A stretch of 64,000 nucleotides of DNA, taken from contig OZ251539.1 of NCBI GenBank assembly GCA_965243135.1, positions 1,920,001-1,984,000 on the forward strand. The letters run 5' to 3'. The position numbers and the translations under genes are program-made. Positions 1-50,991 of the stretch are shown piece by piece (the stretch's first letter is position 1; each line of letters starts with the position of its first letter). The notes beneath the pieces are model-generated. The model made no database searches, was not told where the DNA came from, and saw only the letters and a program-made list of their open reading frames with translations. Source of the stretch: Alphaproteobacteria bacterium. Its GTDB lineage: Bacteria; Pseudomonadota; Alphaproteobacteria; MPNO01; UBA830.

Positions 1-860
1 GCGAACGAAGTAGCGGGAAACCGCGGCCGTGACCAGCGGCAGCGAGACGGCCGCCCAGCCGGCTCCGCCCACGAGTCCGAACAGAAGGTAGTAGTGAAGC
101 GGTTCCGCGGCGAAGGCGGTGCCGCCGATGCCGGCAGCGAGGGCGATCAGTCCCGCGGCGAATATCGGCTGCGCCCCGTAGCGGTCCCTGCCCGCCACCG
201 GCGACCCGACGGCCATCATGACCAGAACCAGGGAGGCGCCCGCCGACGATTGCGCTCCCGTCCACCCGAGTTCCGACTGCCAGAACGGGAGAACCATGCT
301 CACGGACGACCGCGCGCCGAAAGTGAAGGCCAGCGCGACGAAGCAGACGACGGCCGGCGCGCGTCTCGTCGGTCACCGGAGTCGCGCTCCTGCGCCGCGT
401 CGCCCGGCGAAACGCCGGAAATCCGCCCCGGCGCCGGCCGCGAAGCGGCGCGCCGCCGAAAAGGGACGGCCGCAACTCCGGAAGAGCCGCGTCACCGCGC
501 AGCATGGCGACCAGCACTTTGTTGGCTGCCTCAACCACGCCTGACGGCGTAGCCTCCGACCTTCAGGATCGCGTAGCGCATGCGACGCCGGTCCTTCCGT
601 TCACGCGGCCTCCCCATTTCCGGCAGACGTAAAGCGGCCAGATGAAAATCGTCGGTGAGACGCGAAGGTGAACGGCGAAAGGCAGATCTCGTCGACGTCG
701 AGTTCCTCCCGAAGCTCCCGGGCCCGGCGTCCCTCCGCCGCCGGCCGCCGGGGAATTCCCCCGCTCCGCCCTCCGGCCGCCGCGACGGCGAAAACGACCG
801 GCTCTCCAGCCCTGCGGCGCGGAACCCGGAGACGCGCCCGGCCCGCGAAGCCTGCAGGGA
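1..860 (-). pseudogene. Eroded duplicate of the MFS 5' part and mutT
   Basis: Aligns by eye to 33975-34930 with many short deletions; no intact frame. Confidence 0.85.
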
Positions 861-3367: not shown

Positions 3368-3560
3368 TCCTCGACGTCGAGTTCCTCCCTGAGCTCCCGG
3401 GCCCGGCGTCTCTCCACCGCCGGCCATCGGGGAATTCCTTGCCCTGCGGCCGCAGCCACGACGAGAACGACCGGCTCTCCAGCCCTGCGGCGCGGAACCC
3501 GGAGACGCGCCCGACCCGCGAAGCCTGCCGGCGCGCGAGCGCCTGCAGGGAGACGCCGCC
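3368..3560 (-). pseudogene. mutT remnant
   Basis: Translates to RELREELDVE (Nudix box fragment); matches 34700-34930 with deletions. Confidence 0.75.
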
Positions 3561-3688: not shown

Positions 3689-4187
3689 TCAGGCGGGCTC
3701 GCAGCCGACGACGTTGCGCTCCTCGCGGCTGAACTCCACCAGGTGGACCGAACGTCCGAGACGGCGGTACTTGTCCGCGTAGCCCTTCTCCCGCAGCTGC
3801 GCGAGCGCGCCCCCCTCCCGTCCGCGCTCCACCACCTTGAACTCGAACAGGTAGACGCGCCCGCCGGCGCGGACCGCCATGTCGGCGCGCCCCCGGCTGC
3901 CGCTGTCCTCGGCCACCGGCTCAAGGCCCTCCAAGCAGCTGGACGCTCGCGTAGTGGGCCTCGTACACCGGGCTGTTCATGTACCACTGGTGCGCGGCGA
4001 AGACGCCGCGGAAACAGGGTGCGTTCGAAGTCGTTCGCCGCCAGCAGTTCGCCCAGCCGCAGGCACCCCGTCTTCTTGCGAGCCTCGACCGGGAGCAGTT
4101 CTTCCAGCAAGGCCTCGCCCAGGCTCCGGCGCACCTCGAGGTTCGGGTAGCCCAGCCTGTAGCGTCCGTCCTCCTCGCCGGGGATGG
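3689..4187 (-). pseudogene. AAA/PD-(D/E)XK copy B, 3' fragment
   Basis: C-terminal nuclease motifs with deletions; begins exactly at the 3' end of the intron remnant. Confidence 0.85.
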
Positions 4188-4980
4188 GTAGAGTCGAGGA
4201 CTGGCGCGTTAGCTTTAGGGTCCGGGTTCCGTCGCTTTCGCTCCGGGCCTCAGTCCGGCTCCCGTGGCCATGTTTCCAGTCCCCGCTCTCCGAACCGGAC
4301 GTGCGGATTTCCCGCGCCTCCAGCCCTCGCCCACGGATGAATTGGTAGCGTTCCCAGAACGGCCGGTCTTCCGGACCCGGGAGTTGCACCGTCTCCCATT
4401 TCCGTCTGTTTTCCGCTGTCCAACCCGTCGCCGAGCCTGTTTACGCCTCGGCAACCCCAGCCTCTCGACCGGGTTCCTTCGCTTGTAACGCTTCCGGGAT
4501 CTCTGACATGTAGTCGGTTGTTAGGCATAGCCCCTTCTCCCTTGCGGCCCCTTTCCTCGCGCCCCTTTCCTCCGCCGGCGTTACCCGGCTTCTCCGGTAC
4601 TACGGGCCTCTCCGCCACCCGCCGGCCTGCCCCTCGCGGGGTTCCGGTTGACTCGTGCGCGTCACCGACAGGGCTTCCCGTGTTGCTGCTTCCTTCATTT
4701 TCCATGCGTGCCGACCCCCGGCGGAAACGGTCGGTGCTCTTGTCGTTCTCTTCCCGACCGTCGGCGGCTTTCCCCTAGGAGGGTCAGCTTCCGCGTTAAC
4801 CGTTTCGAGGCCTGGTTCACTCGCGTTTCGGCCCGCATGTTCGCTGAGCGGCCTTCGCCGCCCTTTTTGCCAGAGTGCTTCAGCCTACGCTCCGTAAACC
4901 GCCCTGGCCGCTACCAACCGGAACGACAGTTGTTGGGCGGGATTCACACCACCAGAAGAAAGCGCCTTTTCACGGTGCAC
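4188..4980 (-). mobile_element. ORF-less group II intron remnant, copy 1
   Basis: Minus strand starts GTGCAC, has domain V-like GCGGGAAATCCGCACGTCCGGTTCGGAGAGCGGGG and ends CTCGACTCTAC; no RT ORF; homologous to 14092-14958. Confidence 0.85.
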
Positions 4981-5109
4981 CAAAACATCGGTCTATAGAT
5001 TGTATTTTCCGACATTATGTCACGTCATCGCGCGCTTGAACAGCAAAAGGAGCAAGCAAGAAGCGACCGGTCCCGACCTTTCAGGCATGACCTGACCCGG
5101 CTGCTCGCC

Positions 5110-8004: not shown

Positions 8005-8620
8005 AATCCGGGAGCGCCGCGCGAGCCCGAACAGAAGGCAGGCGGTTCCGCGGCGAAGGCGGCGCCGTCGGCAGCGAGGGCGCCCACGGCGACTCACGCC
8101 GCCGCCGCGGCGCGCCTTTCCGGCACCAGCAGGGCAAAGACCCCGGCGATCGCGGCAAGCGCGACCCACCACGGTCCGTCGTATCTCGCGGTCAGATCGA
8201 AGATCCCCGAGCAGGACCCCTGCCGCCGCGCCCAGGGAATGGCCGCCGAACAGCAGCCCGAGCGTGAGGCCCCGCAAGCCGCGTCGCGACGATGTTGGCG
8301 ATCACCGGGAAGGTGGCGAAGTTGAGAACGCCGAAGCGGGCCGCGAAGAGAAACAGGACGGAGGCCGCGACGAACGGCAGCGCGACGAAGGCCAGGGCGC
8401 GGCCGAAGAACATGCTCGCCAGCAGTCGCGGGCGATGGTCCGCCGAAAACAGGACGACGCCGGCCCGTGAACCCCGTAGGCGGCGAAGCCCTCGACGAGG
8501 GCCGCCGCGACGACGAGAACGGCCGGCTCTCCCGCCCTGCAGCGCGGCGCGGAACCCGAAGCGCCGCCCGGATCGAGAACACCGGGCGGAGCGCGAGCGC
8601 CTGCAGGGAGACGCCGCCGG
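8005..8620 (-). pseudogene. Eroded MFS/mutT duplicate
   Basis: Matches 33150-33620 and 34850-34940 with deletions. Confidence 0.8.
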
Positions 8621-8716
8621 ACGCGGCCTCCTCGGCCGGGCGGCCCGTCAAGCCGCGCGACGAACCGGCGTCGCGGGCGGCGTTCTTTCGCGGAGGCGGC
8701 CGTGACGGGAAGCCGT

Positions 8717-10252: not shown

Positions 10253-10258
10253 CGGAAG

Positions 10259-10287
10259 AGAGTAGGCCGCCCCGTCGAAGCCGTCAA
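10259..10287 (-). promoter_or_regulatory. Sigma70-like leaderless promoter of copy C; equivalents precede all full-length copies
   Basis: TTGACG-N17-TACTCT-N6-ATG with no Shine-Dalgarno. Confidence 0.7.
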
Positions 10288-10445
10288 GAAGTCGGCGGCG
10301 GGGGTGAGCAGGCCATGAGCGTTTGGTACCGGACATATCGTCTGTTACTGACAGGTCTGCTCGAAGCCGTTGACACCGGGCGGCGGTGTCCCTAACCTTA
10401 TGCTTGAATTCTCTGGGGATGGCCCGAACGACGGAGGTGCCGAAC

Positions 10446-11829: not shown

Positions 11830-13430
11830 GCGCGCCTACCGGTCGGGCGACGCGCGAGCGGCAAGCGTTGCCGCCGGGCAGCGCGAGCGGCAAGCGTTGC
11901 CGCCGGGCAGCGCAACCGCAAGGCTGGCCGACGCGCGGCGGCGACTCACGCCGACGCCGCGGCGCGCCTTTCCAGCACCAGCAGGGCAAAGACCCCGGCG
12001 AGCGCGGCAACCACCACAGTCCGTCTCGCGGTCGAAGATCCCCCAGCAAGACCCCTGTCGCCGCGCCTAGGGAATGGCCGCCGAACAGCAGCCCGAGGCC
12101 CCGCAAGCCGCGTCGCGACGATGTTGGCGATCACCGGGAAGGCGGCAAAGTTGAGAACGCCGAAGAGGGCCGCGAAGAGAAACAGGACGGAGGCCGCGAC
12201 GAACAGCAGCACGACGAAGGCCAGAGCGCGGCCAAAGAACATGCTCGCCAGCAGTCGCGGACGATGGACATGGTCCGCCGAAAACAGGACGACGCCGGCC
12301 CGTGAACCCCGTAAGCGGCGGAGCCCTCGACGAGGGTGAAGCCGCAGGTCAGGGCGTAGGGAATGAAATACGCGTCGATTATCCCGGCCGTCGTGAAGCC
12401 GCACAGCGCGAAGGCGGCGAGCAGCAGCAGAAAAGTCCGTTCCCGGAACAGGGACTTCAGGCGGTCGGACAGGGAACCGTCGTCGGCCGCAGCGGCGGCA
12501 GGCGTCGGCAGGTTTTCCGGCGGCGGCCTGAAACAAAGGACGACCAGCAGGGAGAGCACCGCCGCGCCCAGGTAAGAAGTCCGCCAGCCGAGCGACGCGA
12601 CGCCCAGAAGCGACAGGACCGGAAGCTGTCGCCGCGCCCGAAACGGCGAGGCCGATCGCCAGTCCGCGCCCGCGAACGAAGTAGCGGGAAACCGCGGCCG
12701 TGACCAGCGGCAGCGAGACGGCCGCCCGCCCGCCCACGAGCCCGAACGGAAGGTAGGCGGTTCCGCGCGAAGGCGGTGCCGCCGGCAGCGAGCTGCGCTC
12801 CGTAGCGGTCCCTGCACAGCCACACCATCGGCGACCCGACGCCACCCAGGGCGGCGCCCGCCTGCGCTCCCGTCCACCCGAGTTCCGACTGCCAAGACGG
12901 GAGAACCATGCTCACGGACGACCGCGCGCCGAAAGTGAAGGCCAGCGCGGCGAAGCAGACGACGGCCGGCGCGCGTCTCGCCGGTCACCGGAGTCGCGCT
13001 CCTGCGCCGCGCCGCCCGGCGCGCCGCCGAAAACGGACGGCCGCAACTCCGGAAGAGCCGCGTCGGCAACCAGCGGCCGGTCGACGGGCGGCGTAGGCGT
13101 CGAGGCGCACCGGCTTCACCCACGCGACCTGCTGTCCTTCCGTTCACGCGCCCTCCCCATTTCCGGCAGACGTAAAGCGGCCAGGTGAAAATCGTCGGTG
13201 AGACGCGAAGGTGAACGGCGAAAGGCAGCTCTCGTCGACGTCGAGTTCCTCCCGAAGCTCCCGGGCCCGGCGTCTCCCCGCCGCCGGCCGCCGGGGAATT
13301 CCCCCGCCCTGCCCTGCGGCCGCCGCGCGACGCGCCCGTCGACGAGAGCCGCCGTGACGACGAGAACGACCGCTTCTCCCGCCCCGCGGTGCGGAACCCG
13401 GAGCGCCGCCCGGCCCGCGAAGCCTGCAGG
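11830..13430 (-). pseudogene. Near full-length eroded MFS plus mutT duplicate
   Basis: Collinear with 33075-34930 but with dozens of short deletions. Confidence 0.9.
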
Positions 13431-13569
13431 GAGACGCCGCCGGCCCCGAGGCGGCCTCCTCGGCCGGGCGGCCCGTCAAGCCGCGCGACGAACCGGCGGA
13501 ACCGGCTGCCGCCGCAGGCCGAACCGCGGGCGGCGTTCTTTCGCGGAGGCGGCCGTGACGGGAAGCCGT

Positions 13570-15949
13570 TCAGGCGGGCTCGCAGCCGACGACGTTGCGC
13601 TCCTCGCGGCTGAACTCCACCCCGACCAGGTGGACCGAACGTCCGAAATGGCGGTACTTGTCCGCGTAGCCCTTCTCCCGCAACTGCGCGAGCGCGATCC
13701 CCTCCCGTCCGCGCTCCACCACCTTGAACTCGAACAGGTAGACGCGCCCGCCGGAGCGGATCGCCATGTCGGCGCGCCCCCGGCTGCCGCTGTCCTCGGC
13801 CACCGGCTCGAGGCCCTCCATCAGGAAGCAGCTGTGGATGACGCTCGCGTAGTGGGCCTCGTACACCGGGCTGTTCATGTACCACTGGTGCGGGATGGCG
13901 GCGAAGACGCCGCGGAACAGGGTCTCGACGCGCTTGAAGTCGTTCGCCGCCAGCACCCAGCCGCAGGTTCTCCGTCTCCTCGCGGGCCTCGTCCGGGAGC
14001 AGTTCTTCCAGCAAGGCCTCGCCCAGGCTCTGGCGCACCTCGAGGTTCGGGTAGTCCAGCCGGTAGCGCCCGTCCTCCTCGCCGGCGATGGGTAGAGTCG
14101 AGGACTGGCGCGTTAGCTTTAGGGTCCGGTGGATGTTCCGTCGCTTTCGCTCCGGGCCTCAGTCCGGCTCCCGTGGCCACGTTTCCAGTCCCCGCTCTCC
14201 GAACCGGACGTGCGGATTTCCCGCGCCTCCAGCAGGATCATGCGTCTCGCCCACGGATGGATTGTCAGCGTTCCCAAAAAACGGCCGGTTTTCCGGACCC
14301 GGGAGTTGCACCGTCTCCCATATTTTCCGCCTGTTCTCGCTTTCCAACCCGTCGCCGAGCCTGTTTACGCCTCGACGACCCCGGCCTCTCGACCGGGTTC
14401 CTTCGCTTCTGCATGTGACGCTTCCGGGATCTCTGGCATGTAGTCGGTTGTTAGGCATAGCCAATCTCCGAGCCCTTCTCCCTTGCGGCGCCCTTCCTCG
14501 CCTGAGGCCCCTTTCCTCCGCCGGCGTTACCCGGCTTCTCCGGTACTACGGGCCTCTCCGCCACCCTGCCGGCCCGGCCTGCCCCTCGCGGGGTTCCGGT
14601 TGACTCGTGCGCGTCACCGACAGGGCTTCCCGTGTTGCTGCTTCCTTCATCTTCCATGCGTGCCGACATCACTACCCCGGCGGAAACGGTCGGTGCTTTT
14701 GTCGTTCTCTTCCCGACCGTCGGCGGCTTTCCCCTAACCTCAGGAGGGTCAGCTTCCGCATTGACCGTTTCGAGGCCTGCTCAATGTTCACTACTCGTTT
14801 CGGCCCGCGTGTTCGCTGAGCGGCCTTCGCCGCCCTTTCCCAGAGTGCTTCAGCCTACATCGTTACCTCCGTAAACCGCCCTGGCCGCTACCAACCGGAA
14901 CGACAGTTGTTGGGTGGGATTCGCACCCACCAGAAGAAAGCGCCTTTCCACGGCGCACTGAGGTAGCCGGTCTGGAACAGAAGCGCCTGGACCGACATCC
15001 TGTCCACGTCGAAGGTCGAGAGCAGGCTCTCGCTGCCGATCATGCCGTCCAGGCGGGGAGTGGGCAGGTTGCGGCGCGCCAGCGTCTCGATCAGGAAGGT
15101 CGGCGTGCCGCTCTCGAACCAGTAGTTGCCGAACTTGCGTTTGTCGAACAGCAGCAGGAGGCCGAACGGGTTGTAGACCCTCTCCGGTCCGAGCCAGTTG
15201 TAGCCGTTGTACCAGCGCCGGATCTCGTCCCGGTCCAGGCCCTCGAGTTCCGGGGCGAAGACCGCGTCCAGTTCCGCGTCCGTGCAGCCGCAGATGGCGC
15301 CGTAACGCTCGTCCAGCGTGATGTCGTTCAGGTTGTTCAGGCCCGAGAACAGGCCCGTTAACTTGCTCACCCCCGTCAGGAAAACGAAACGGAGATGCCT
15401 GTCGCAGTCCTTGATCATCGCGTAGAAGCCGCGCAGGAAGCTGCGGTTGGCCAACGCCAGTTCCCGGTCGCCGAGCGCGTCCAGGATCGGCTTGTCGTAT
15501 TCGTCCACCAGAACGACCGCCCGCCGCCCGGTGCGCTCGTGCAGCGTCCTTATCAGGCGCCGGAAACGGACCGCCGCCCCGGCGGGATCCGGTTCGAGGC
15601 CGGCCAGCCGCTCCGTTTCCTCCAACTGGTCTTCCACGTTTTCCCGAACGAGGTCCGGGGAGTCGAAATTGCCCCCGCCGAAGCTGATCCGCACGACAGG
15701 ATGGCGCGCCGACCAGTCCCACTTGCCGTGCACGGCGAGGCCCCGGAACAGCTCCTCGCTCCCCTCGAACAACTCCTGCAGCGTGTCCACCAGCAGGGTC
15801 TTGCCGAACCGGCGCGGACGCGACAGGAAATAGTACTTGCCCCTCTCGACGAGGCGGCGCGCATGCTCCGTCTTGTCGACGTAGTAGCAGTCCATCCCCC
15901 GGATCTCCCGGAGGGAGGAAAAGCCGATCGGAAGCATGCGTTTCGTCAT
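13570..15949 (-). pseudogene. AAA/PD-(D/E)XK copy D, interrupted by group II intron
   Basis: Removing 14092-14958 restores GGC TAC CTC ACC ATC GCC (GYLTIA); additional 5-nt deletion (ATTCG) near 13955. Confidence 0.9.
14092..14958 (-). mobile_element. ORF-less group II intron, 867 nt
   Basis: 5' GTGCGCC, domain V/VI-like 3' region ending CTCTAC, precise exon junctions without target duplication; only a degenerate start of the RT ORF remains. Confidence 0.9.
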
Positions 15950-16084: not shown

Positions 16085-17285
16085 CAGCTACGCTTCAGGC
16101 GCTTACCGGTCGGGCGACGCGCGGCAGCGACTCACGCCGCTGCCGCGGCGCGCCTCTCCGGCGCCAGCAGGGCAAAGACCCCGGCGAGCGCGGCAACCAC
16201 CAAAGTCCGTCTCGCGGTCGAAGATCCCCGAGCAAGACCCCTGTCGCCGCGCCCAGGGAATGGCCGCCGCCGACGCCGAGGTCGACCTCAAGGTCGATCT
16301 CCTCGCCCTTCATGTGGGCGGCGACCGGCGCTTCGTCGTAACCCGGAACCGCCCTCCCCTTGTCGGCCACCGGAACGCCGCCGATGCTGATGCGCAAACG
16401 GTCGCGATCGGCTTCCTCTCCCGCCTTGCCCACCGCCATGACGATCCGCCCCCAATTGGCGTCTTCTCCGGTGATCGCCGTCTTCATCAGCAGGGAGTTG
16501 GCGATCGAGAAGGCGACGTTGCGCGCCGCCCGGGGCGACGCCGCGCCGGTCACGGTGACGGCGACGAACTTGGTCGCGCCTTCGCCGTCGCGAACGATCT
16601 GGTGCGCGAGATCGAGGAGGATTTCGTCGAGGGCCGAGCGGAATCGCCGCAAGCGCGGATCCGAGGCGTCGACGACCGGGTCGTGCCCGGCCGCGCCGGT
16701 CGCGAACAGCAGAACCGCGTCGTTGGTCGAGGTGTCTCCGTCGACGGTGATCGAATTGAAGGACTTGTCGGCGCTCCGGGACAGAAGCCGCCGGAGCGCG
16801 GCGGCGCCGACCGCCGCGTCCGTGAAGACGAAGGCCAGCATCGTCGCCATGTCGGGCGCGATCATGCCGGATCCCTTGGCGATGCCGCAGACGACGACTT
16901 CGGCGTCTCCGACGCGGGTCTTTCTCCACGACCCCTTCGGAAAGGTGTCGGTGGTCATGATGGCCTCCGCGGCCTCTTTCCAGCCATGCGGGGCCAGGGA
17001 GTTCCGCAGGCTTTCCAGCGAGTCCCGGATGCGCTTGTCGGGAAGGGTCTCGCCGATCACGCCGGTCGAGGCGACGAGCACGTGGGATCCGGAGCACGAC
17101 AGCGCGGCCGCCGTCCGGGATTTGGTCAACACGCCGGCCGCCCTGGTTCCGGGCGCGAGCGACGCGAGAAACACGTCCAGCCGTCCGGCGTAACGCAGGC
17201 CGCAACAGGCGGCCGCGAGCGAAACGCCCGGGACGGGAGGCATGTCCGGAAAGCCGCCGGGGGCGAGCGGCGAGAGCTTCTTCAT
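16085..17285 (-). pseudogene. argJ: argJ duplicate with an internal deletion, 3' end fused to an MFS remnant
   Basis: Near-identical to 34952-36181 (KGSGMIAPDMATML), lacks ~44 codons and the C-terminus; joined to MFS DNA at GGCCGCCG near 16262. Confidence 0.9.
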
Positions 17286-17453
17286 GCGCCTGTCGACTCT
17301 CTCAAGCGGCCCGTAACGGCCGTATCGTTTATGCCCACCGAAACGAGGCTACTGCAACCTCTGCAAAAACAAGTCATTCAATACCGTCCGGGTCGTCGCG
17401 GCGGGCCGGCTTCGCGGGGGCTACTGCAACCTCCGCAAAAACCAGTCATTCAG

Positions 17454-17625: not shown

Positions 17626-17990
17626 GTCGGTCAGCCACCATGCGCGTTGCGCTTCAAACTTGAAGGGGCGCTCCTCGGCGTCGAGTTCCTCCCTGAGCTC
17701 CCGGGCCCGGCGTCTCTCCGCCGCCGGCCGTCGGGGAATTCCTTGCCCTGCGGCCGCCGCCACGACGAGAACGACCGGCTCTCCAGCCCTGCGGCGCGGA
17801 ACCCGGAGACGCGCCCGACCCGCGAAGCCTGCCGGCGCGCGAGCGCCTGCAGGGAACCGTCGTCGGCCGCGGCGGCCTCCTCGGCCGGGCGGCCCGTCGA
17901 GCCGCGCGACGAACCGGCGGAACCGGCCGCCGTCGCGGGCCGAACCGCGGGCGGCGTTCTTTCGCGGAGGCGGCCGTGACGGGAAGCCGT

Positions 17991-20715: not shown

Positions 20716-20961
20716 ACGCGCCCGTCGACGAGGGCCGCCGCGACGGCGAGAACGACCGGCTCTCCCGCCCTGCAGCGCGAAACCCGGAGACGCGCCCGGC
20801 CCGCGAAGCCTGTCGGCGAGCGAGCGCCTGCAGGGAGACGCCGCCGGGCGCGGCCTCCTCGGCCGGGCGGCCCGTCAAGCCGCGCGACGAACCGGCGGAA
20901 CCGGCTGCCGCCGCAGGCCGAGCGGCGTTCTTTCGCGGAGGCGGCTGTGACGGGAAGCCGT

Positions 20962-22963: not shown

Positions 22964-23648
22964 CGCTCGGCTTCGCACGCGCGCCGACAAGGCTGTCGCC
23001 GGGCTGCAGCAGCCTGTGCGCCGGCCCGGCCACGCAGGTTCGCGGCGCGGGACAGGACAAACAGCGGTCGTCGGCCCGGCCACGGGGCAGAGGGGGATTT
23101 TTTCGCTGCGGCGGGGCGTTCGCCGCAGGGAGGGCGTAGCCCGACCGGAGGCGAACGCCCCGCCGCCCCGGCACCTCGACTCACCGGCCAACCCATCCCC
23201 ATACTGCCTTGGCGACAGGGATTGCCGACCGCCGGTATTGCGCTTCGGAGTTGATAGCGGGCCTATTTTCCAAGGGCCATAGCGGGAATTGCCGGTCGGT
23301 CAGCCACCATGCGCGTTGCGCTTCAAACTTGAAGGGGCGCTCCTCGGCGTCGAGTTCCTCCCTGAGCTCCCGGGCCCGGCGTCTCTCCGCCGCCGGCCGT
23401 CGGGGAATTCCTTGCCCTGCGGCCGCCGCGACGACGAGAACGACCGGCTCTCCAGCCCTGCGGCGCGGAACCCGGAGACGCGCCCGACCCGCGAAGCCTG
23501 CCGGCGCGCGAGCGCCTGCAAGGAGACGCCGTCGGCCACGGCCTCCTCGCCGGGCGGCCCGTCAAGCCGCGCGACGAACCGGCGGAACCGGCTGCCGCCG
23601 CAGGCCGAGCGGCGTTCTTTCGCGGAGGCGGCCGTGACGGGAAGCCGT

Positions 23649-25399: not shown

Positions 25400-26400
25400 G
25401 GAAGCGAGCGCTGCCGCCGGGCAGCGCAAGGTTGGCGGACTTGCGGCGGCGACTCAAGCCGCCGCCACGGCGCGCCTTTCCGGCACCAGCAGGGCAAAAA
25501 CTCCGGCGACCGCGGCAAGCGCGACCCACCACAGTCCGTCTCGCGGTCGAAGATCCCCCAGCAAGACCCCGGTCGCCGCGTCCAGGGAATGGCCGCCGAA
25601 CAGCAGCCCGAGCGTGAGGCCCGCAAGCCGCGTCGCGACGATGTTGGCGATCACCGGGAAGGTGGCGAAGTTGAGAACCCCGAAGAGGGCCGCGAAGAGG
25701 AACAGGACGACGCCGGCGAGATTGCCCGTGAACCCCGTAGGCACCCTCGACGAGGGTGAAGCCCCAGGTCAGGGCGTAGGGAATGAAGTACACGTCGATT
25801 ATCCCGGCCGTCGTGAAGCCGCACAGCGCGAAGGCGGCGAGCAGCAGCGGAAAGGTCCGTTCCCGGAACAGGGATTTCAGGCGGTCGGGCAGGGAACCGT
25901 CGTCGGCCGCGGCGGCAGGCGTCGGCGGGTTGCGGCGGCCTGAAATGAAGGAGGACCAGCAGGGAGAGCGCCGCCGCGCCCAGGCAGGAAGTCCGCCAGC
26001 CGAGCGACGCGACGCCCGGAAGCGACAGGACCGGAAGCTGTCGCCGCGCCGGAAACGGCGACGCCAGTCCGCGCCTGCGCGCGAAGTAGCGGGAAACCGC
26101 GGCCGTGACCAGCGGCAGCGAAACGGCCGCCCGCCCGCCCACGAGCCCGAACGGAAGGTAGGCGGTTCCGCGGCGAAGACGGTGCCGCCGGCAGCGAGGG
26201 CGCCCGCCTGCGCTCCCGTCCACCTGCCGGGAGAACCATGCTCACGGACGACCGCGCGCCGAAAGTAAAGGCCAGCGCGACGAAGCAGGTTGCGACGACG
26301 GCCGGCGCGCGTCTCGCCGGTCACCGGAGTCGCGCGCCGAGCCGCCCGGCGCGGAACCCGGAGACGCGCCCGAGCCGCGAAGCCTGCCGGCGCGCGAGCG
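25400..26400 (-). pseudogene. Eroded MFS/mutT duplicate
   Basis: Matches 33100-34390 with deletions; near-identical to 28300-29270. Confidence 0.85.
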
Positions 26401-28299: not shown

Positions 28300-29270
28300 A
28301 GCGAGCGCTGCCGCCGGGCAGCGCAAGGTTGGCGGACTTGCTGCGGCGACTCAAGCCGCCGCCACGGCGCGCCTTTCCGGCACCAGCAGGGCAAAAACTC
28401 CGGCGACCGCGGCAAGCGCGACCCACCACAGTCCGTCTCGCGGTCGAAGATCCCCCAGCAAGACCCCGGTCGCCGCGCCCAGGGAATGGCCGCCGAACAG
28501 CAGCCCGAGGCCCCGCAAGCCGCGTCGCGACGATGTTGGCGATCACCGGGAAGGTGGCGAAGTTGAGAACCCCGAAGAGGGCCGCGGAGAGGAACAGGAC
28601 GACGCCGGCGAGATTGCCCGTGAACCCCGTAGGCACCCTCGACGAGGGTGAAGCCCCAGGTCAGGGCGTAGGGAATGAAGTACACGTCGATTATCCCGGC
28701 CGTCGTGAAGCCGCACAGCGCGAAGGCGGCGAGCAGCAGCGGAAAGGTCCGTTCCCGGAACAGGGATTTCAGGCGGTCGGGCAGGGAACCGTCGTCGGCC
28801 GCGGCGGCAGGCGTCGGCGGGTTGCGGCGGCCTGAAATGAAGGAGGACCAGCAGGGAGAGCGCCGCCGCGCCCAGGCAGGAAGTCCGCCAGCCGAGCGAC
28901 GCGACGCCCGGAAGCGACAGGACCGGAAGCTGTCGCCGCGCCGGAAACGGCGACGCCAGTCCGCGCCTGCGCGCGAAGTAGCGGGAAACCGCGGCCGTGA
29001 CCAGCGGCAGCGAAACGGCCGCCCGCCCGCCCACGAGCCCGAACGGAAGGTAGGCGGTTCCGCGGCGAAGGCGGTGCCGCCGGCAGCGAGGGCGCCCGCG
29101 GCGAGCTGCGCTCCGTAGCGGTCCCTGCCCGCCGCCGGCGACCCGACGGCCACCCAGGGAGGCGCCCGCCTGCCTCCCGTCCACCTGCCGGGAGAACCAT
29201 GCTCACGGACGACCGCGCGCCGAAAGTAAAGGCCAGCGCGACGAAGCAGGTTGCGACGACGGCCGGCGCG
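28300..29270 (-). pseudogene. Eroded MFS duplicate
   Basis: Sister of 25400-26310. Confidence 0.85.
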
Positions 29271-29421
29271 CGAGCGCCTGCAGGGAACCGTCGTCGGCCG
29301 CGGCGGCCTCCTCGGCCGGGCGGCCCGTCCAGCCGCGCGACGAACCGGCGGAACCGGCTGCCGTCGCGGGCCGAACCGCGGGCTGCGTTCTTTCGCGGAG
29401 GCGGCCGTGACGGGAAGCCGT

Positions 29422-31165: not shown

Positions 31166-32695
31166 TCAGGCGGCCTCGCAGTCGAAGCCGACGACGTTGC
31201 GCTCCTCGCGGCTGAACTCCACCCCGATCAGGTGGACCGAACGCCCGAGGTGGCGGTACTTGTCCGCATAGCCCTTCTCCCGCAACTGCGCGAGCGCGGT
31301 CCCCTCCCGTCCGCGCTCCACCACCTTGAACTCGAACAGGTAGACGCGCCCGCCGGCGCGGACCGCCATGTCGGCCCGCCCCCGGCTGCCGCTGTCCTCG
31401 GCCACCGGCTCGACGCCCTCCATCAGGAAGCAGCTGTGGATGACGCTCGCGTAGTGGGCCTCGTACTTCGCGACGGGGCTGTTCATGTACCATTGGTGCG
31501 GGGCGAAGACGCCGCGGAACAGGGTCTCGATGCGCTCGAAATCGTTCGCCTCCAGCAGTTCGCCCAGCCGCAGGCGCCCCGTCTTCTTGCGCGCCTCGAC
31601 CGGGAGCAGTTCTCCCAGCAAGGCCTCGCCCAGGCTCCGGCGCACCTCGAGGTTCGGGTAGTCCAGCCGGTAGTGCCCGTCCTCCTCGCCGGCGATGGTG
31701 AGGTAGCCGGTCTGGAACAGAAGCGCCTCGACCGAGATACTGTCCACGTCGAAGGTCGAGAGCAGGCTCTCGCTGCCGATCATGCCGTCCAGGTCGGGAG
31801 TGGGCAGGTCGCGGCGCGTCAGCGTCTCGACCAGGAAGGTCGGCGTGCCGCTCTGGAACCAGTACGGGCGGAACTCGCGCCGTTGAAACAGCAGCAGGAG
31901 GCCGAACGGGTTGTAGACCCTCTCCGGCCCGCGCCAGTTGTAGCCGTTGTACCAGCGGCGGATCTCGTCCCGGTCCAGGCCCTCGAGTTCCGGGGCGAAG
32001 ACCGCGTCCAGCTCCGCGTCCGTGCAGCCGCAAATGTCCGAGAACTCCGGCGCCAGCGTGATGTCGTTCAGGTTGTTCAGGCCAGAGAACAGGCCCGCTT
32101 TCGAGAATTTGCTCACCCCCGTCAGGAAAACGAAACGGAGCTGCCTGTCGCAGTCCTTGATCATCGCGTAGAAGCCGCGCAGGAAGTCGCGGTTGGCCGC
32201 CGCCAGTTCCCGGTTGCCGAGCACGTCCAGAATCGGCTTGTCGTATTCGTCCACCAGAACGACCGCCCGCTGTCCGGTGCGCTCGTGCAGCGTCCTTATC
32301 AGGTGCCGGAAACGGACCGCCGCCCCGGCGGGACCCGGTTCGAGGCCGGCCAGCCGCTCCGTCTCCTCCAACTGGTCTTCCACGTTTCCCCGAATGAGAT
32401 CCGGGGAGTCGAAATGGCCCCCGCCGAAGCTGATCCGCACGACAGGATGGCGCGCCGACCAGTCCCACTTGTCGTGCACGGCGAGGCCCCGGAACAGCTC
32501 CTCGCTTCCTTCGAACAACTCCTGCAGCGTGTCCACCAGCAGGGTCTTGCCGAACCGGCGCGGACGCGACAGGAAATAGTAATCGCCCTCTTCGACGAGG
32601 CGGCGCACATGGTCCGTCTTGTCGACGTAGTAGCAGTTCCTCGTCCGGATTTTCCGGAGGGAGGTCATGCCGATCGGAAGCATGCGTTTCGCCAT
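31166..32695 (-). CDS. AAA/PD-(D/E)XK copy J, 509 aa
   Basis: Intact ORF; 2-codon deletion (FAPHQ versus FAAIPHQ). Confidence 0.92.
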   Translation of the reverse strand: MAKRMLPIGMTSLRKIRTRNCYYVDKTDHVRRLVEEGDYYFLSRPRRFGKTLLVDTLQELFEGSEELFRGLAVHDKWDWSARHPVVRISFGGGHFDSPDLIRGNVEDQLEETERLAGLEPGPAGAAVRFRHLIRTLHERTGQRAVVLVDEYDKPILDVLGNRELAAANRDFLRGFYAMIKDCDRQLRFVFLTGVSKFSKAGLFSGLNNLNDITLAPEFSDICGCTDAELDAVFAPELEGLDRDEIRRWYNGYNWRGPERVYNPFGLLLLFQRREFRPYWFQSGTPTFLVETLTRRDLPTPDLDGMIGSESLLSTFDVDSISVEALLFQTGYLTIAGEEDGHYRLDYPNLEVRRSLGEALLGELLPVEARKKTGRLRLGELLEANDFERIETLFRGVFAPHQWYMNSPVAKYEAHYASVIHSCFLMEGVEPVAEDSGSRGRADMAVRAGGRVYLFEFKVVERGREGTALAQLREKGYADKYRHLGRSVHLIGVEFSREERNVVGFDCEAA

Positions 32696-33158: not shown

Positions 33159-34370
33159 TCACGCCGCCGCGGCGGCGCGCCTTTCCGGCACCAGCAGGGC
33201 AAAGACCCCGGCGAGTGCGGCAAGCGCGACCGCGATCCACCAAAGTCCGTCGTATCTCGCGGTCAGATCGAAGATCCATCCGCCGAGCAAGACCCCTGTC
33301 GCCGCGCCCAGGGAATGGCCGCCGAACAGCAGCCCGAGCGTAAGGCCCATAACTCGCAAGCCGATATGCGTCGCGACGATATTGGCGATCACCGGGAAGG
33401 TGGCGAAGTTGAGAACGCCGAAGAGGGCCGCGAAGAGAAACAGGACGGAGATGTCGGCCGCGACGAACAGCAGCACGACGAAGGCCAGAGCGCGGCCGAA
33501 GAACATGCTCGCCAGCAGTCGCGGGCGATGGACATGGTCCGCCATCCACGAAAACAGGACGACGCCGGCGAGATTGCCGATCCCGTGAACCCCGTAGGCG
33601 GCGGAGCCCTCGACGAGGGTGAAGCCGCAGGTCAGGGCGTAGGGAATGAAGTACACGTCGATTATCCCGGCCGTCGTGAAGCCGCACAGCGCGAAGGCGG
33701 CGAGCAGCAGCAGAAAGGTCCGTTCCCGAAACAGGGACTTCAGGCGGTCGGACAGGGAACCGTCGCCTGCCGCCGCGGCGGCGGGCGGCGGCGGGTTTTC
33801 CGGCGGCGGCCTGAAACGAAGGACGACCAGCAGGGAGAGCGCCGCCATCGCGGCGCCCAGGATCAGGTAAGAAGTCCGCCAGCCGAGCGACGCGATCATG
33901 ACGCCCAGAAGCGACAGGACCGGAAGCTGTCCTCCGGACGCGCCCGAAACGGCGAGGCCGACCGCCAGTCCGCGCCCGCGAACGAAGTAGCGGGAAACCG
34001 CGGCCGTGACCAGCGGCAGCGAGACGGCCGCCCAGCCGGCTCCGCCCACGAGTCCGAACAGAAGGTAGTAGTGAAGCGGTTCCGCGGCGAAGGCGGTGCC
34101 GCCGATGCCGGCAGCGAGGGCGATCAGCCCCGCGGCGAATATCGGCTGCGCTCCGTAGCGGTCCATCAGGTTGCCCGCCACCGGCGACCCGACGGCCATC
34201 ATGACCAGAACCAGGGAGGCGCCCGCCGACGATTGCGCTCCCGTCCACCCGAGTTCCGACTGCCAGAACGGGAGAACCATGCTCACGGACGACCGCGCGC
34301 CGAAAGTGAAGGCCAGCGCGACGAAGCAGGTCGCGACGACGATCCAGCCGGTGCGCGTCTGGCCGCTCAC
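33159..34370 (-). CDS. MFS transporter, intact source of the eroded copies
   Basis: About 12 TM segments, GNLMDRYG and WMADHVHR motifs; start uncertain (GTG 34370 or up to 34469). Confidence 0.88.
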   Translation of the reverse strand: MSGQTRTGWIVVATCFVALAFTFGARSSVSMVLPFWQSELGWTGAQSSAGASLVLVMMAVGSPVAGNLMDRYGAQPIFAAGLIALAAGIGGTAFAAEPLHYYLLFGLVGGAGWAAVSLPLVTAAVSRYFVRGRGLAVGLAVSGASGGQLPVLSLLGVMIASLGWRTSYLILGAAMAALSLLVVLRFRPPPENPPPPAAAAAGDGSLSDRLKSLFRERTFLLLLAAFALCGFTTAGIIDVYFIPYALTCGFTLVEGSAAYGVHGIGNLAGVVLFSWMADHVHRPRLLASMFFGRALAFVVLLFVAADISVLFLFAALFGVLNFATFPVIANIVATHIGLRVMGLTLGLLFGGHSLGAATGVLLGGWIFDLTARYDGLWWIAVALAALAGVFALLVPERRAAAAA

Positions 34371-34479
34371 CGGAGTCGCGCTCCCGCGCCGCGCCGCCCG
34401 GCGAAACGCCGAAAACCCGCCCCGGCGCCGGCCGCGAAACGGCGCGCCGCCGAAAAGGGACGGCCGCAAAAGAGCCGCG

Positions 34480-34971
34480 TCACAGGAAATCGCGCAGCAT
34501 GGCGATCAGCGGGCGGTCGGCGGGCGGCATGGGGTAGGCGCCGAGGCGCGCCGGCTTCACCCACGCAACCTGCTGTCCTTCCATAGGGTTCACGCGGCCT
34601 CCCCATTTCCGGCAGACGTAAAGCGGCATCAGCAGATGAAAATCGTCGTAGCGGTGAGACGCGAAGGCGAACGGCGAAAGGCAGCTCTCCTCGACGTCGA
34701 CGTCGAGTTCCTCCCGAAGCTCCCGGATCAGCGCCCGTTCCGGCGTCTCCCCGCCGCCGATCTTGCCGCCGGGGAATTCCCACAATCCCGCCATGGACTT
34801 GCCCTCCGGCCGCCGCGCGATCAGAACGCGCCCGTCGACATCGAGGAGGGCCGCCGCGACGACGAGAACGACCGGTTCTCCCGCCCCGCGGCGCGGCGCG
34901 GAACCCGGAGGCGCGCCCGGCCCGCGAACGCCGGGCGGAGCGCTTCGCGCTTCAGGACCGGTAATCGGCAT
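34480..34971 (-). CDS. mutT: 8-oxo-dGTP diphosphatase MutT (Nudix)
   Basis: GLWEFPGGKIGGGETPERALIRELREELDV; overlaps the argJ stop. Confidence 0.92.
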   Translation of the reverse strand: MPITGPEARSAPPGVRGPGAPPGSAPRRGAGEPVVLVVAAALLDVDGRVLIARRPEGKSMAGLWEFPGGKIGGGETPERALIRELREELDVDVEESCLSPFAFASHRYDDFHLLMPLYVCRKWGGRVNPMEGQQVAWVKPARLGAYPMPPADRPLIAMLRDFL

Positions 34972-36181
34972 TGATGGAGATATAGTCGTGGGTCAGGTCG
35001 CAGGTCCATACGGTGGCGCGGCCGCCGCCGATGCCGAGGTCGACCTCGACGTCGATCTCCTCGCCCTTCATGTGGGCGGCGACCGGCGCTTCGTCGTAAC
35101 CCGGAACCGCCCTCCCCTTGTCGGCGACCGGAACGCCGCCGATGCTGATGCGCAAACGGTCGCGGTCGGCTTCCTCTCCCGCCTTGCCCACCGCCATGAC
35201 GATCCGCCCCCAATTGGCGTCTTCTCCGGCGATCGCCGTCTTCACCAGCGGGGAATTGGCGATCGAGAAGGCGACGTTGCGCGCCGCCCGGGGCGACGCC
35301 GCGCCGGTCACGGTGACGGCGACGAACTTGCTCGCGCCTTCGCCGTCGCGAACGATCTGGTGCGCGAGATCGAGGAGGATTTCGTCGAGGGCCGAGCGGA
35401 ATTGCCGCAGGCGCGGATCCGAGGCGTCGACGACCGGGTCGTGCCCGGCCGCGCCGGTCGCGAACAGCAGAACCGTGTCGCTGGTCGAGGTGTCTCCGTC
35501 GACGGTGATCGAATTGAAGGACTTGTCGGCGCTCCGGGACAGAAGCCGCCGGAGCGCGGCGGCGCCGACCGCCGCGTCCGTGAAGACGAAGGCCAGCATC
35601 GTCGCCATGTCGGGCGCGATCATGCCGGATCCCTTGGCGATGCCGCAGACGACGACTTCGGCGTCTCCGACGCGCGTCTTTCTCCACGACCCCTTCGGAA
35701 AGGTGTCGGTGGTCATGATGGCCTCCGCGGCCTCTTTCCAGCCGTGCGGGGCCAGGGAGTTCCGCAGGCTTTCCAGCGAGTCCCGGATGCGCTCGTCGGG
35801 AAGGGGCTCGCCGATCACGCCGGTCGAGGCGACGAGCACGTGGGATCCGGAGCACGACAGCACGTCCGCCGCCTTCTCGACGGTGCGTTCGACCGACTTG
35901 CGGCCCTCGAGTCCGGTGAAGGCGTTGGCGTTTCCGGCGTTCACGATCAGCGCCCGGGCCTCGCCGGCTTCGAGCGCCTGCCGGCACCAGTCGACCGGCG
36001 CGGCCGCCGTCCGGGATTTGGTCAACACGCCGGCCGCCCTGGTGCCGGGCGCGAGCGACGCGAGAAACACGTCCAGCCGTCCGGCGTAGCGCAGGCCGCA
36101 ACAGGCGGCCGCGAGCGAAACGCCCGGAACGGGCGGCATGTCCGGAAAGCCGCCGGGGGCGAGCGGCGAGAGCTTCTTCAT
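34952..36181 (-). CDS. argJ: Ornithine acetyltransferase/N-acetylglutamate synthase ArgJ
   Basis: NAGNANA, STGVIG, IMTTDT, KGSGMIAPDMATML, DGDTST, DGEGA, WTCDLT..YI.INADYRS. Confidence 0.97.
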   Translation of the reverse strand: MKKLSPLAPGGFPDMPPVPGVSLAAACCGLRYAGRLDVFLASLAPGTRAAGVLTKSRTAAAPVDWCRQALEAGEARALIVNAGNANAFTGLEGRKSVERTVEKAADVLSCSGSHVLVASTGVIGEPLPDERIRDSLESLRNSLAPHGWKEAAEAIMTTDTFPKGSWRKTRVGDAEVVVCGIAKGSGMIAPDMATMLAFVFTDAAVGAAALRRLLSRSADKSFNSITVDGDTSTSDTVLLFATGAAGHDPVVDASDPRLRQFRSALDEILLDLAHQIVRDGEGASKFVAVTVTGAASPRAARNVAFSIANSPLVKTAIAGEDANWGRIVMAVGKAGEEADRDRLRISIGGVPVADKGRAVPGYDEAPVAAHMKGEEIDVEVDLGIGGGRATVWTCDLTHDYISINADYRS

Positions 36182-36551
36182 GCGCCTGTCCGTTCTCTCA
36201 AGCGGCCCGCAACGGCCGTATCGTTCATGCGCACCCGTCCGGCGTAACGCAGGCCGCAACAGGCGGCCGCGAGCGAAACGCCGGGAACGGGAGGCATGTC
36301 CGGAAAGCCGCCGGGGGCGAGCGGCGAGAGCTTCTTCATGCGCCTGTCGACTCTCTCAAGCGGCCCGCAACGGCCGTATCGTTCATGCGCACCCGTCCGG
36401 CGTAACGCAGGCCGCAACAGGCGGCCGCGAGCGAAACGCCGGGAACGGGAGGCATGTCCGGAAAGCCGCCGGGGGCGAGCGGCGAGAGCTTCTTCATGCG
36501 CCTGTGGACTCTCTCAAGCGGCTCGTAACGGCCGTATTGTTTATGCGCACC
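36078..36551 (-). repeat. Three tandem 158-bp units covering the argJ upstream region and first ~34 codons
   Basis: Start codons at 36181, 36339 and 36497, spaced exactly 158 bp. Confidence 0.92.
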
Positions 36552-49126: not shown

Positions 49127-50763
49127 CAGAAATTCCCGCTAACTCGTAGTGGTCCTGCTAAATCAGATGCAAAGGACTCTCTCGACAGGAGGCACGACCG
49201 TCAGGACAGACGTCTAACGTTCGGCTTTATGGCCGAGCTTTCGTTGGTTATGTTTCCCCCTGAAGAACCTGCTACACACTTCGAAAATTTATTATGTCAG
49301 GAAGTATCGTAAGGTTCCAAAATCGGTTTCTTATATCCGAACGCTATCGCACGATAAAGCGTTTCCCAGCTTGGTAGTGAAAAGTTGAAGAACATAGCCC
49401 TCAACTTCTCCCACAAGTAGATGGAACGCTCGGCTTTCTTCCGTGCTCTTTGAAACAGATTGCAACATCTCTGCTGAATCTGATCGATCAGGAAAGCCAG
49501 CATCATCAAGTTAGCAAAGACATTCGACAGATGCTTGTAACCATGACCGAAGTTGTGTTCGAAGTTGTAACCTTGGTTCTTCAGGGTGTTGAAGGTCTCG
49601 TTTTCGATACGCCAACGCGCACGTCCGGCGCGCATTATCTCCATCAGGTTGTGATCTCCTACTGGCAGATCCGTAACCCAAGAGAAGCGTTGCTTTCTGC
49701 CGTCGGGATGCTTTTCCCAGTATTCAACAAAGTTGACTTCAAGGTCGAAATTCGCATCGTTGAGTGGTGCCTTGTTAAGATATCTGAATTCGTGCATTAT
49801 ACCTTCTTTATCGGAGAATTCAGCACGTTTCACAGATCGTGACCTGTCCACTAAATCAAACAAAAATTTATGATCTCCCGGCTTCGCGCCCAGTATGAAG
49901 CGAAGGTTCAACTCCTTGAGATGCTTGACATGCGGGCCGTTCGAGGCAAGTCCGTCTTCTACCACTATCAATTTCAAAAACGGATGCTCCCGCCGCACAT
50001 CGCGCAACAGTCGTGTCGCTGCGTTGCGTTCGCAATCGTTTTTCTTCTTTCCATCTTTCTTGGTAATCGGCTCCGGTGCAAGAGGGAAAACTTCCTTTTG
50101 GCGCACGAGAACTGCCCCCAGCATCTGGTGGTAGTACGTGATTGTTCCGTTCCTGTGATGCTTTTCACAGCAGCTTTTACAGTGCACCTTGTGAGATGAA
50201 AAATATCCCGTTCCGTCAACGGATAAAAGATAATGCCCGCCTAGACAGGTGTAACCTTCCAGACCCTTTCCACGCTGAAGCAACTGGAACATCTTCGTGA
50301 AAGCGGGACGTAAACTACGGGGGTCCACGTCGTCCAGACGCTCGCGCAACCTGCTGTCGGAAGGCGCTCTCTCTATCCCGTACAACGTCGCAAGATTATT
50401 GCGAACCGTTTCATCAAAACGTGCGTCGCGATCAAACTTTAAAAGAGATTTGTACTTCAAACCAAATACCGCAATCCCCGACATCAGGCAGTCCGAAAGA
50501 GCGACGCCTCGACTCGCCGTCAGATCCTCAATGCCGTCAAAAACCTCCCGGAGCGCCTTCAGCAATCCCGGAGCGCTGAGCGTCTTGCGCATGCCTGGCA
50601 TTCTGGCCATTTTGGTACAATCCCGCCTCGCCTTCGGACCACTTTCCAGAGAAAGATGCTCCGCTCGAAGGCAAATAGCCCCGAATCACCTCGAAAAGTC
50701 TACGAAAAATTTTTTTCGGACTCCATATTTTCCACGGGTTTCGAGCCTTAGCGGGAATTGCTG
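49127..50763 (-). mobile_element. IS element (ISNCY/IS4-like), 1637 bp
   Basis: TIRs CAG(A/C)AATTCCCGCTAA; 9-bp TSD TTGCGGCAG (49118-49126, 50764-50772); visibly lower GC. Confidence 0.9.
49297..50610 (-). CDS. DDE transposase
   Basis: LSVDGTG, IVVEDGL and GRARWRIENETFNTLKNQGY motifs. Confidence 0.9.
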   Translation of the reverse strand: MARMPGMRKTLSAPGLLKALREVFDGIEDLTASRGVALSDCLMSGIAVFGLKYKSLLKFDRDARFDETVRNNLATLYGIERAPSDSRLRERLDDVDPRSLRPAFTKMFQLLQRGKGLEGYTCLGGHYLLSVDGTGYFSSHKVHCKSCCEKHHRNGTITYYHQMLGAVLVRQKEVFPLAPEPITKKDGKKKNDCERNAATRLLRDVRREHPFLKLIVVEDGLASNGPHVKHLKELNLRFILGAKPGDHKFLFDLVDRSRSVKRAEFSDKEGIMHEFRYLNKAPLNDANFDLEVNFVEYWEKHPDGRKQRFSWVTDLPVGDHNLMEIMRAGRARWRIENETFNTLKNQGYNFEHNFGHGYKHLSNVFANLMMLAFLIDQIQQRCCNLFQRARKKAERSIYLWEKLRAMFFNFSLPSWETLYRAIAFGYKKPILEPYDTS

Positions 50764-50991
50764 TTGCGGCAGCACGGCTCTGCAGGCGTTGTCGAGCGCG
50801 CTGCGCCTCGTCGCGGCTCGCCTTCCGTGCCGTCGGTGTCGGCGATGACGGCGATGACGGCGATGACCGCGCTCGCGGTCCTCGTCCTCCAGCGCCGCCC
50901 TGAATCGCGCCGCGAGGGCGTCCCCCTGCGCCTTGACGCTCGCAAGAGAGCCGTCGGCGAACGTGGCTGCTGACCCAACCTCTATGTAATT

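Follow-up and report, generated by a model that had tools for sequence, protein, structure and literature searches.

Anchored deletions of 5-6 nt in repeated DNA of an alphaproteobacterial genome

The stretch of DNA analysed here (the window) comprises 64,000 nucleotides (nt), bases 1920001-1984000 of a single-contig genome (G000) of 6.10 Mb with 65% G+C and a completeness of 98.8%. The host is an alphaproteobacterium whose ArgJ is at most 67% identical to records from Pelagibius, Rhodovibrionaceae and Kiloniellaceae. The window carries a tandem array of nuclease genes together with eroded remnants of an MFS transporter gene and a NUDIX gene, of which an intact copy is also present. Comparison of the remnants with this source revealed an unusual and real mutational signature, in which deletions of 5 or 6 nt anchored at a short motif predominate, and which was also found in repeated DNA elsewhere in the genome.

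All genes relevant to the remnants lie on the minus strand (Table 1). To the left of the intact MFS-NUDIX-ArgJ block a 1.6-kb nuclease gene stands in tandem array, and an MFS-NUDIX remnant closes each array unit. Because every unit ends in such a remnant with a common right edge, at source position ~34943, the array must have originated by tandem duplication of a unit made up of the nuclease gene, MFS and NUDIX; the sole intact MFS-NUDIX copy is the rightmost. Genome-wide, the nuclease gene occupies 141 loci and is near full length at 123; nucleotide identity to the reference copy ranges from 70 to 100%, and the protein was found in 5 of the 31 genomes searched (the present one, three of its four congeners and G030). 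One nuclease copy (13567-15995) is interrupted by a group II intron fragment of ~870 nt, with a match to Rfam group-II-D1D4-4 at 14793-14932.

Table 1. Coordinates, within the window, of the genes, nuclease copies, eroded remnants and mobile elements considered here
Feature	Position	Strand	Remarks
Intact MFS transporter gene, source part 1	33159..34469	-	Pfam MFS_1, E 1.6e-41
Intact NUDIX (NUDIX_4) gene, source part 2	34480..34971	-	domain match
Intact ArgJ gene, right of duplicated unit	34952..36259	-	Pfam ArgJ, E 2.5e-145
Reference AAA-ATPase_like (PF09820) + PDDEXK_9 (PF08011) nuclease gene	31166..32695	-	Pfam domains
Further nuclease copies/pieces 1-5	918-2471, 3688-4187, 8712-10298, 13567-14091 with 14959-15995, 17970-19575		
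Further nuclease copies/pieces 6-10	20956-22543, 23644-25230, 26541-28127, 29417-31003, 61991-63577		
R1 (source 33978-34928)	1..849		19 deletions, 8 insertions, 36 mismatches
R2	3371..3536		9 deletions
R3, rearranged pieces	8022..8594		piece R3a: 8 deletions, all 5-13 nt
R4, eroded MFS + NUDIX remnant	11881..13421		44 deletions, 4 insertions, 57 substitutions against source
R5a	16112..16269		4 deletions, all four also in R4
R6	17675..17840		remnant
R7	20716..20816		remnant
R8	23344..23509		remnant
R9	25404..26351		two pieces, 29 deletions
R10	28301..29272		two pieces, 35 deletions
ArgJ paralogue and upstream DNA, counter-example	16262..17451	-	four BLAST segments, none gapped
Group II intron fragment copy 1, eroded	4180..5020	-	18 deletions against copy 2
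Group II intron fragment copy 2, within nuclease copy	14085..14965	-	
Insertion sequence (IS) copy, family F2, weak DDE_Tnp_1 match	49127..50770	-	one 6-nt deletion against intact family copies

Global alignment of the remnant R4 with its source (33094-34928) gave 1473 matches, 57 mismatches, 44 deletions and 4 insertions. Fifteen of these deletions had removed 5 nt and a further 15 had removed 6 nt, the remainder being of 7 nt (two), 1-4 nt (seven), 13 nt (two) or longer (three). AT dinucleotides were hit in particular, 34 of the 52 in the source having been wholly or partly deleted in R4, 4 substituted and 14 kept, as against 16.6% of all positions deleted, and the deletions at AT mostly began exactly at the A or finished exactly at the T. 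R4, which has lost 62-65% of its AT sites and carries 3.7% substitutions, looks saturated, which would account for the lower ratio of deletions to substitutions observed in it.

Pooling the ten remnants yielded 81 unique deletions; lengths of 5, 6 and 7 nt account for 20, 22 and 5 of them, and lengths of 4 nt and 1 nt for 4 and 10. For the 47 unique window deletions of 5-7 nt a null was built by placing deletions at random in the source 5000 times, with length and microhomology class kept the same. AT stood at a boundary in 29 of the 47, against 3.9 +/- 1.9 (maximum 12) in the matched null, and was contained in 30, against 6.0, while TC or GA lay one base inside a boundary in 28, against 10.9 (maximum 23). 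An initial annotation of this DNA had described motif-biased deletions, mostly of 5-6 nt and often containing AT; the pattern was borne out, and proved more pronounced than described there, both against the matched null and in R4, where 30 of the 44 deletions are of 5-6 nt. The nine deleted words listed there from the source at 33075-36595 were all found when equivalent gap placement was allowed, as was the loss of TGGAT from intron copy 1 relative to copy 2. The two nuclease frameshifts fared unequally: a 5-nt deletion of TCGAT is present in two copies, but the 5-nt deletion of ATTCG was not seen, a 6-nt deletion of ATTCGC being found instead. One remnant site was hit recurrently, by a 6-nt deletion in three remnants and a 7-nt deletion in a fourth, and one 6-nt deletion common to two remnants was missing in the sister of one of them. 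The G+C content is 0.715 in the remnant region and 0.660 in the source; the deletion process leaves the affected DNA richer in G+C.

Genome-wide events were collected by comparison of the genome with itself as unique, cleanly flanked indels, which are measurable only in repeated DNA, a quarter of the genome. The 5519 indels obtained included 704 of 1 nt, 160 of 2 nt, 186 of 3 nt, 62 of 4 nt, 1292 of 5 nt, 2156 of 6 nt, 335 of 7 nt and 59 of 8 nt, so that the 5-6-nt class made up 3448 of them. The copies in which they were seen are dead ones, of IS elements, of intron fragments, of nuclease paralogues and of gene remnants left by tandem duplication. When 123 nuclease copies were aligned, 14 unique deletions of 5 nt, 35 of 6 nt and 6 of 1 nt were counted, and only 11 small insertions. 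The excess of 6-nt over 5-nt deletions in this family fits selection for the reading frame, the two sizes being equally common in non-coding remnants and among private events.

The direction of the events was read from private events, defined as a gap in one copy where the word is present in at least 80% of at least three other copies. Polarised in this way, 146 private deletions comprised 59 of 5 nt, 59 of 6 nt, 14 of 7 nt and 11 of 1 nt, with none of 4 nt. There were also 24 apparent private insertions, including 14 of 5-6 nt; 13 of these 14 were inspected, and none was a tandem duplication, while AT stood at the boundary in 11. They are best read as the lone copy that had retained a word lost elsewhere. 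Six pairs of source and eroded copy gave 170 deletions and 17 insertions in the eroded copy, which had lost 117 of 460 AT sites, whereas small deletions covered just 5-12% of all positions. The events are thus deletions, not insertions, and a real, heritable and lineage-specific process removes 5 or 6 nt, rarely 7.

The anatomy of the deleted site was examined in the genome-wide events of 5-6 nt. AT lay within 51% of the deleted words, against 16-20% by chance, and could be placed at the boundary in 48% of events, that is in nearly all AT-containing words, where the null gave 11-12%. When strand and placement were fitted by expectation-maximisation, the result was S/ATC S(N)R/R, where the slash marks a deletion boundary, or Y/Y(N)SGAT/S on the other strand; the half of events with no AT at the boundary gave GA in that register too. 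Since this non-AT class shares the register, the core of the site is TC, or GA on the opposite strand, lying one base in from a boundary, and A is preferred before it: S/(A>T)TC S(N)R/R. Measured against all AT sites of the genome, C after AT was moderately enriched (0.57 against 0.42), G before AT was not (0.34-0.40 against a background of 0.42), and the far boundary preferred purine/purine. The motif is one-sided and non-palindromic, matches on both strands numbering 84 against ~116 expected under independence (n=633). In the nuclease family, deletions of 5, 6 and 7 nt have one boundary in common at several alignment columns.

Microhomology at these events was 0 nt in 34%, 1 nt in 41% and at least 2 nt in 25%, against 51%, 27% and 21% after random placement. 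Microhomology of at least 2 nt is near chance, and 34% of events have none of any length, which does not agree with slipped-strand mispairing. Of the microhomology of 1-4 nt that had been described at these deletions, the enrichment at 1 nt stood, but a third of events had none, and the process needs no microhomology. Both strands and both replichores are affected alike: the ratios of AT-start to AT-end events were 432:456 and 233:254, and those of private events 17:15 and 15:15. A primer or lagging-strand origin is unsupported, because there is no such replication-strand bias. Error-prone synthesis at the junctions was likewise rejected, mismatches 1-15 nt from a junction occurring at 0.03-0.075 against a background of 0.051, with no excess.

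The deletions recur in public sequence data, as contigs of all four runs aligned to R4 carry the deleted forms; one study contributed three of the samples and a second study the fourth. Six further runs, which had small shares of the words, were set aside. Ungapped contig pieces with 0-2 other letters span the junctions at 12113-12371 (X10), 12129-12313 (X11), 12453-12598 (X7), 12453-12630 (X9) and 12738-12889 (X7 and X9); the best-matching runs may be the source sample, X11 belongs to the other study, and no listed contig covers the whole stretch. Identical words with identical flanks are intact in the source copy, the sets of deletions are nested among copies, an eroded IS (family F1, below) recurs unchanged at two loci, and five single-copy repair genes (MutS, MutL, ExoVII, RecJ and Pol I) gave family matches without internal stops. 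The deletions are not a consensus artefact.

Bacteria are deletion-biased, and a deletional bias was reportedly described by Kuo and Ochman in 2009 and by Mira and colleagues in 2001. Ordinary bias of this kind acting with drift in pseudogenes, or an artefact of assembly or polishing in a repetitive array that is hard to assemble, is already contradicted, however, and is scarcely credible: the spectrum is not a power law, the motif enrichment lies far beyond the null, the source copy has the words correctly read, the junctions are present in ungapped contigs from two studies, and the five repair genes have no internal stop. As had been proposed, the process is sequence-directed at GAT/ATC-like sites with a fixed size class, and does not resemble ordinary drift. 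Danneels et al. (2018; PMC6054270) describe the indels of bacterial pseudogenes as following a power law, with 1 nt commonest, an excess of multiples of three and microhomology at 43% of deletions; the present spectrum departs from theirs on each of these counts. The erosion seen here resembles that of bacterial pseudogenes in that deletions exceed insertions in unselected DNA, that Ku and LigD are often absent and that some flanking microhomology occurs. It differs in that no motif is reported there, whereas here there is a hump at 5-6 nt, a scarcity of 4-nt events, a boundary anchored at (A)TC and a rate that can exceed that of substitution.

The rate was most clearly seen in IS copies. Between the intact copy of family F1 at 5424277-5425908 and the eroded copy at 417613-419160 there are 0 mismatches, 15 deletions and 0 insertions, and three other near-identical pairs have 8-9 indels each (7-8 of them of 5-7 nt) per 0-5 mismatches. 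Pairs with less than 0.1% mismatch, when pooled, gave 0.385 gaps of 5-7 nt per kb against 0.11 mismatches per kb, a pairwise figure dominated by F1. Deletion can thus run far faster than base substitution in dead repeat copies. The eroded F1 copies at 417613-419160 and 476866-478411 are identical, lie in opposite orientation and align only within the element, while the copy at 447453-449049 represents an intermediate form at a third locus. Its deletions (6 of 12 events scored) all fall within the set of the 417613 copy, which has nine more of 5-7 nt, and it has no deletion that is absent from that copy. With 12-15 microdeletions the coding frame of the eroded F1 IS is almost certainly broken; the eroded element was presumably still mobilised, in trans.

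This nesting, together with the intact state of the source copies, would also be expected if the deletions arose while a new copy was being synthesised, by transposition or tandem duplication, so that the template stays clean and the product is scarred. We regard such copy-associated mutagenesis as very unlikely, as unrelated elements are affected (DDE_Tnp_1 IS, an rve/AAA_22 element, a group II intron fragment and tandem gene remnants), each of the dead copies of family F4 has deletions that are not in the other dead copies, and no new deletion of 5-7 nt separates the 417613 and 476866 copies, which are separate insertions.

Related genomes were examined for the same spectrum. G002, of the same genus, has at least 58 matches to a related IS family, with an indel hump shifted to 6-8 nt: 30 of its loci (L117-L146) gave 234 unique events, with 32 of 1 nt, none of 4 nt, 27 of 5 nt, 73 of 6 nt, 36 of 7 nt, 23 of 8 nt and 5 of 9 nt. 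Its motif is weak, AT standing at the boundary in 0.22 of events against 0.12 by chance. Seven nuclease loci of G004, a genome with 21 matches to the nuclease protein, gave a small sample of 16 events without a hump (13 of 1 nt, 2 of 5 nt and 1 of 7 nt), and seven loci of G030 a small sample of 9 (6 of 1 nt, 1 of 3 nt and 2 of 6 nt). The size hump is common to at least one congener, samples being small; no multi-copy family that could serve as a control outside the genus was found. The idea that the expanded nucleases cause the deletions, offered as speculation in the initial annotation, found no support: G004 lacks the hump in its seven loci despite its nuclease matches, and the spectrum of the genome recurs in repeats that lie more than 5 kb from any nuclease copy (571 of 5 nt, 652 of 6 nt and 23 of 4 nt), with AT within 652 of 1223 words of 5-6 nt. 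The nuclease array was accordingly rejected as a local cause.

The explanation that we prefer, tentatively, is that an enzyme excises 5-6 nt by two incisions and that mismatch repair is blind to the loop. Such an enzyme would make its incisions ~5-6 nt apart, one of them anchored beside (A)TC, either as a staggered cut or as excision of a short oligonucleotide, and the ends would be resealed without fill-in. A loop of at least 5 nt would then escape MutS-MutL and be fixed at the next replication, while in working genes purifying selection would mask the process. MutS is not known to recognise loops above ~4 nt, and such a limit would explain why events of 2-4 nt are scarce and why the spectrum sets in sharply at 5 nt, by whatever means the lesion is made; both MutS and MutL are encoded, and loops of 1-4 nt are depleted relative to those of at least 5 nt, as a size filter by mismatch repair would have it. 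The sharp upper limit and the equal numbers of 5-nt and 6-nt events look like a ruler, not a decaying slippage spectrum. Taken with the anchored boundary, the third of events without microhomology and the rate above that of substitution, they suggest that a protein measures off 5-6 nt, starting at a degenerate site.

A polymerase might instead misalign, the primer end fraying at weak A-T pairs within GC-rich DNA and re-pairing some bases further downstream, with MutS-MutL clearing loops of 1-4 nt and leaving those of at least 5 nt. The near-empty 4-nt class (62 of 5519 genome-wide, 0 of 146 private deletions and 0 of 234 in G002), the presence of MutS and MutL, the enrichment of 1-nt microhomology, the failure to find end-joining genes and the size hump with a weak motif in G002 would all suit misalignment. 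We nevertheless consider it less probable, though a serious contender, since 34% of events lack microhomology, the steep fall from 6 to 7 nt (59 to 14) is at odds with the slow decay that the spacing of identical bases predicts, 15 deletions per 0 substitutions lie far above known slippage outside repeats, and an asymmetry between leading and lagging strands is absent.

Genes of several candidate pathways were also sought in the genome. Ku (PF02735) gave no matches in G000 or in any of the four same-genus genomes, and ATP-dependent ligase (PF01068) none in G000; classical end joining is unlikely to be the agent, because neither was found, and the break-and-rejoin process proposed in the initial annotation is at most conjectural. 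A type IB topoisomerase (TopIB, PF01028) gave no matches in the genome, in which RNase HII is present. Y1 transposase (PF01797) and TnpB (PF07282) likewise gave none, which leaves no sign here of an IS200/IS605-TnpB system. Loss of single-stranded DNA exonucleases or of the 5'-exonuclease of Pol I was rejected as a cause, ExoVII, RecJ and 5_3_exonuc_N being present in G000 and the genus. NucS was represented by weak partial matches only, and the methylases comprised 22 N6_N4_Mtase and 2 D12 family matches, whose specificities are unreadable from sequence.

Several observations weigh against the two-incision reading. No candidate enzyme for excision of 5-6 nt was found in these searches, and as the searches for Ku, ATP-dependent ligase, TopIB, TnpB and Y1 transposase were negative too, resealing would have no known agent except LigA. 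The 1-nt microhomology enrichment fits polymerase realignment as well. The motif is low in information and the AT sites that are hit are poorly predictable: an ATC/GAT context gave an odds ratio of 1.7 (p = 0.02), and the distal R/R one of 1.1, which was not significant. Because G002 has a hump at 5-8 nt with a weak motif, the size class may be a more fundamental feature than the site. Finally, there is not a single gap in the ArgJ paralogue at 16262-17113, although it contains 29 AT sites and differs from the intact gene by 20 mismatches (6 synonymous and 13 non-synonymous). Its escape, and that of the two-copy duplications described below, requires either selection or a process that is not general.

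Copy number bears on the last point. At equal substitution divergence (34-41 mismatches per kb), gaps of 5-7 nt per kb rose from 0.75 in families of two copies to 2.77 with 3-4 copies, 5.46 with 5-10 and 6.84 with 11-40, and stood at 2.71 in the nuclease genes. Only 4 gaps of 5-7 nt, beside 301 mismatches, separate the two copies of a 28.9-kb segmental duplication (483198-512109 and 5533877-5562740; ~1% divergence). Windows poor in AT, with fewer than 20 per kb, account for 21-27% of repeated DNA and for 2.4-2.6% of unique DNA. A crude gene caller based on third-position G+C (GC3), which was clearly unreliable in that it called only 45% of the genome coding, left a 'non-coding' unique part that is not AT-poor, which is weak evidence. 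Cross-species alignment of unique DNA was uninformative, same-genus genomes being 65-80% identical and aligning in short patches. The statement that the deletions erode all unselected DNA thus went too far, as they are measured in repeats, the ArgJ paralogue is free of gaps, two-copy families have 0.75 per kb and unique DNA is not AT-poor. Two readings fit: a general, fast process hidden by purifying selection, or a process aimed at repeats.

A process of the latter kind would recognise repeated or mobile DNA, as repeat-induced point mutation (RIP) does in fungi, and disable IS elements, introns and redundant copies by microdeletion. It would account for the excess of AT-poor windows in repeats, for a deletion density that climbs with copy number, for many deletions without substitutions and for the lack of AT depletion in the crudely defined non-coding unique DNA. 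Repeat targeting is nonetheless unlikely, as self-comparison assays only repeats and the pattern may be an effect of ascertainment, intact identical IS copies coexist with eroded ones in the genome, and two-copy repeats and the ArgJ paralogue are spared; moreover, we know of no recognition machinery for it here. That the deletions amount to a repeat-directed genome defence, a prokaryotic counterpart of RIP that works by (A)TC microdeletion and raises the G+C of junk DNA, is accordingly doubtful. Fungal RIP itself is premeiotic and eukaryotic and causes C-to-T transitions. The two share many lesions in repeats with little background change, disabled mobile elements and a shifted base composition; they differ in the lesion, which here is a 5-6-nt deletion in a bacterium, and repeat targeting is here only putative.

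Other known systems offer partial parallels. Yeast topoisomerase 1 causes deletions of 2-5 bp at ribonucleotides, through two nearby incisions on one strand followed by religation, and with its short fixed size class and a two-incision enzyme it comes closest in its working to the process preferred here. Those deletions, however, need short tandem repeats and a type IB topoisomerase, whereas here the sites are mostly non-repeat and TopIB was not found, although RNase HII is present. The colibactin signature ID-pks and the COSMIC signature ID8 (deletions of at least 5 bp with 0-1 bp of microhomology) were described in human cells; they too are indel signatures tied to sequence context or break repair with little microhomology, but their sizes and motifs are different, and here neither a genotoxin nor an end-joining pathway has come to light. 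Among published abstracts, subscription journals and supplements aside, no bacterial signature of the present form was found, in keeping with the initial annotation.

Phosphorothioation by dnd leads to breakage at modified GpsA sites, which the GA core of the present motif resembles, and two DndE-domain genes are present (genome 324636-324950 and 5428691-5429002; loci L158 and L159), each followed by an HNH_2 endonuclease gene, in duplicated regions. DndB gave one weak match. Unlike what such sites would lead one to expect, G is not enriched before AT, and neither dndC nor dndD was among the 22 open reading frames scanned in the two 18-kb DndE loci. G004 has DndE, whereas in G002 it was not found, a distribution opposite to that of the signature in these small samples. 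Phosphorothioation is a weak lead as the cause.

Bacterial erosion is usually modelled as a smooth, motif-free bias, whereas here a process of fixed size and anchored position dominates the decay of dead DNA, kills mobile elements and raises local G+C. If enzymatic, it would point to an unknown DNA-processing activity with a ruler of 5-6 nt; if repeat-directed, to a new kind of genome defence; and if general, to a novel mutator phenotype and a novel way in which junk DNA becomes GC-rich. In such lineages, dating pseudogenes or reconstructing the history of elements from indels would give badly wrong results.

Further features of the window and the genome were noted. About three tandem copies of a 158-nt unit (92-96% identical) lie at 36074-36551, where they overlap the start of argJ and the DNA upstream of it, and part of this repeat region is also copied at 17102-17451. 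Two neighbouring large autotransporter genes on the minus strand (37511-42340 and 42579-47540) encode proteins of 1609 and 1653 amino acids with C-terminal beta-domains. Elsewhere in the genome, DDE_Tnp_1 transposases with an N-terminal DruA (Druantia) domain are encoded at 531571-533580 (locus L114) and in locus L159 (1984-4146, minus strand).

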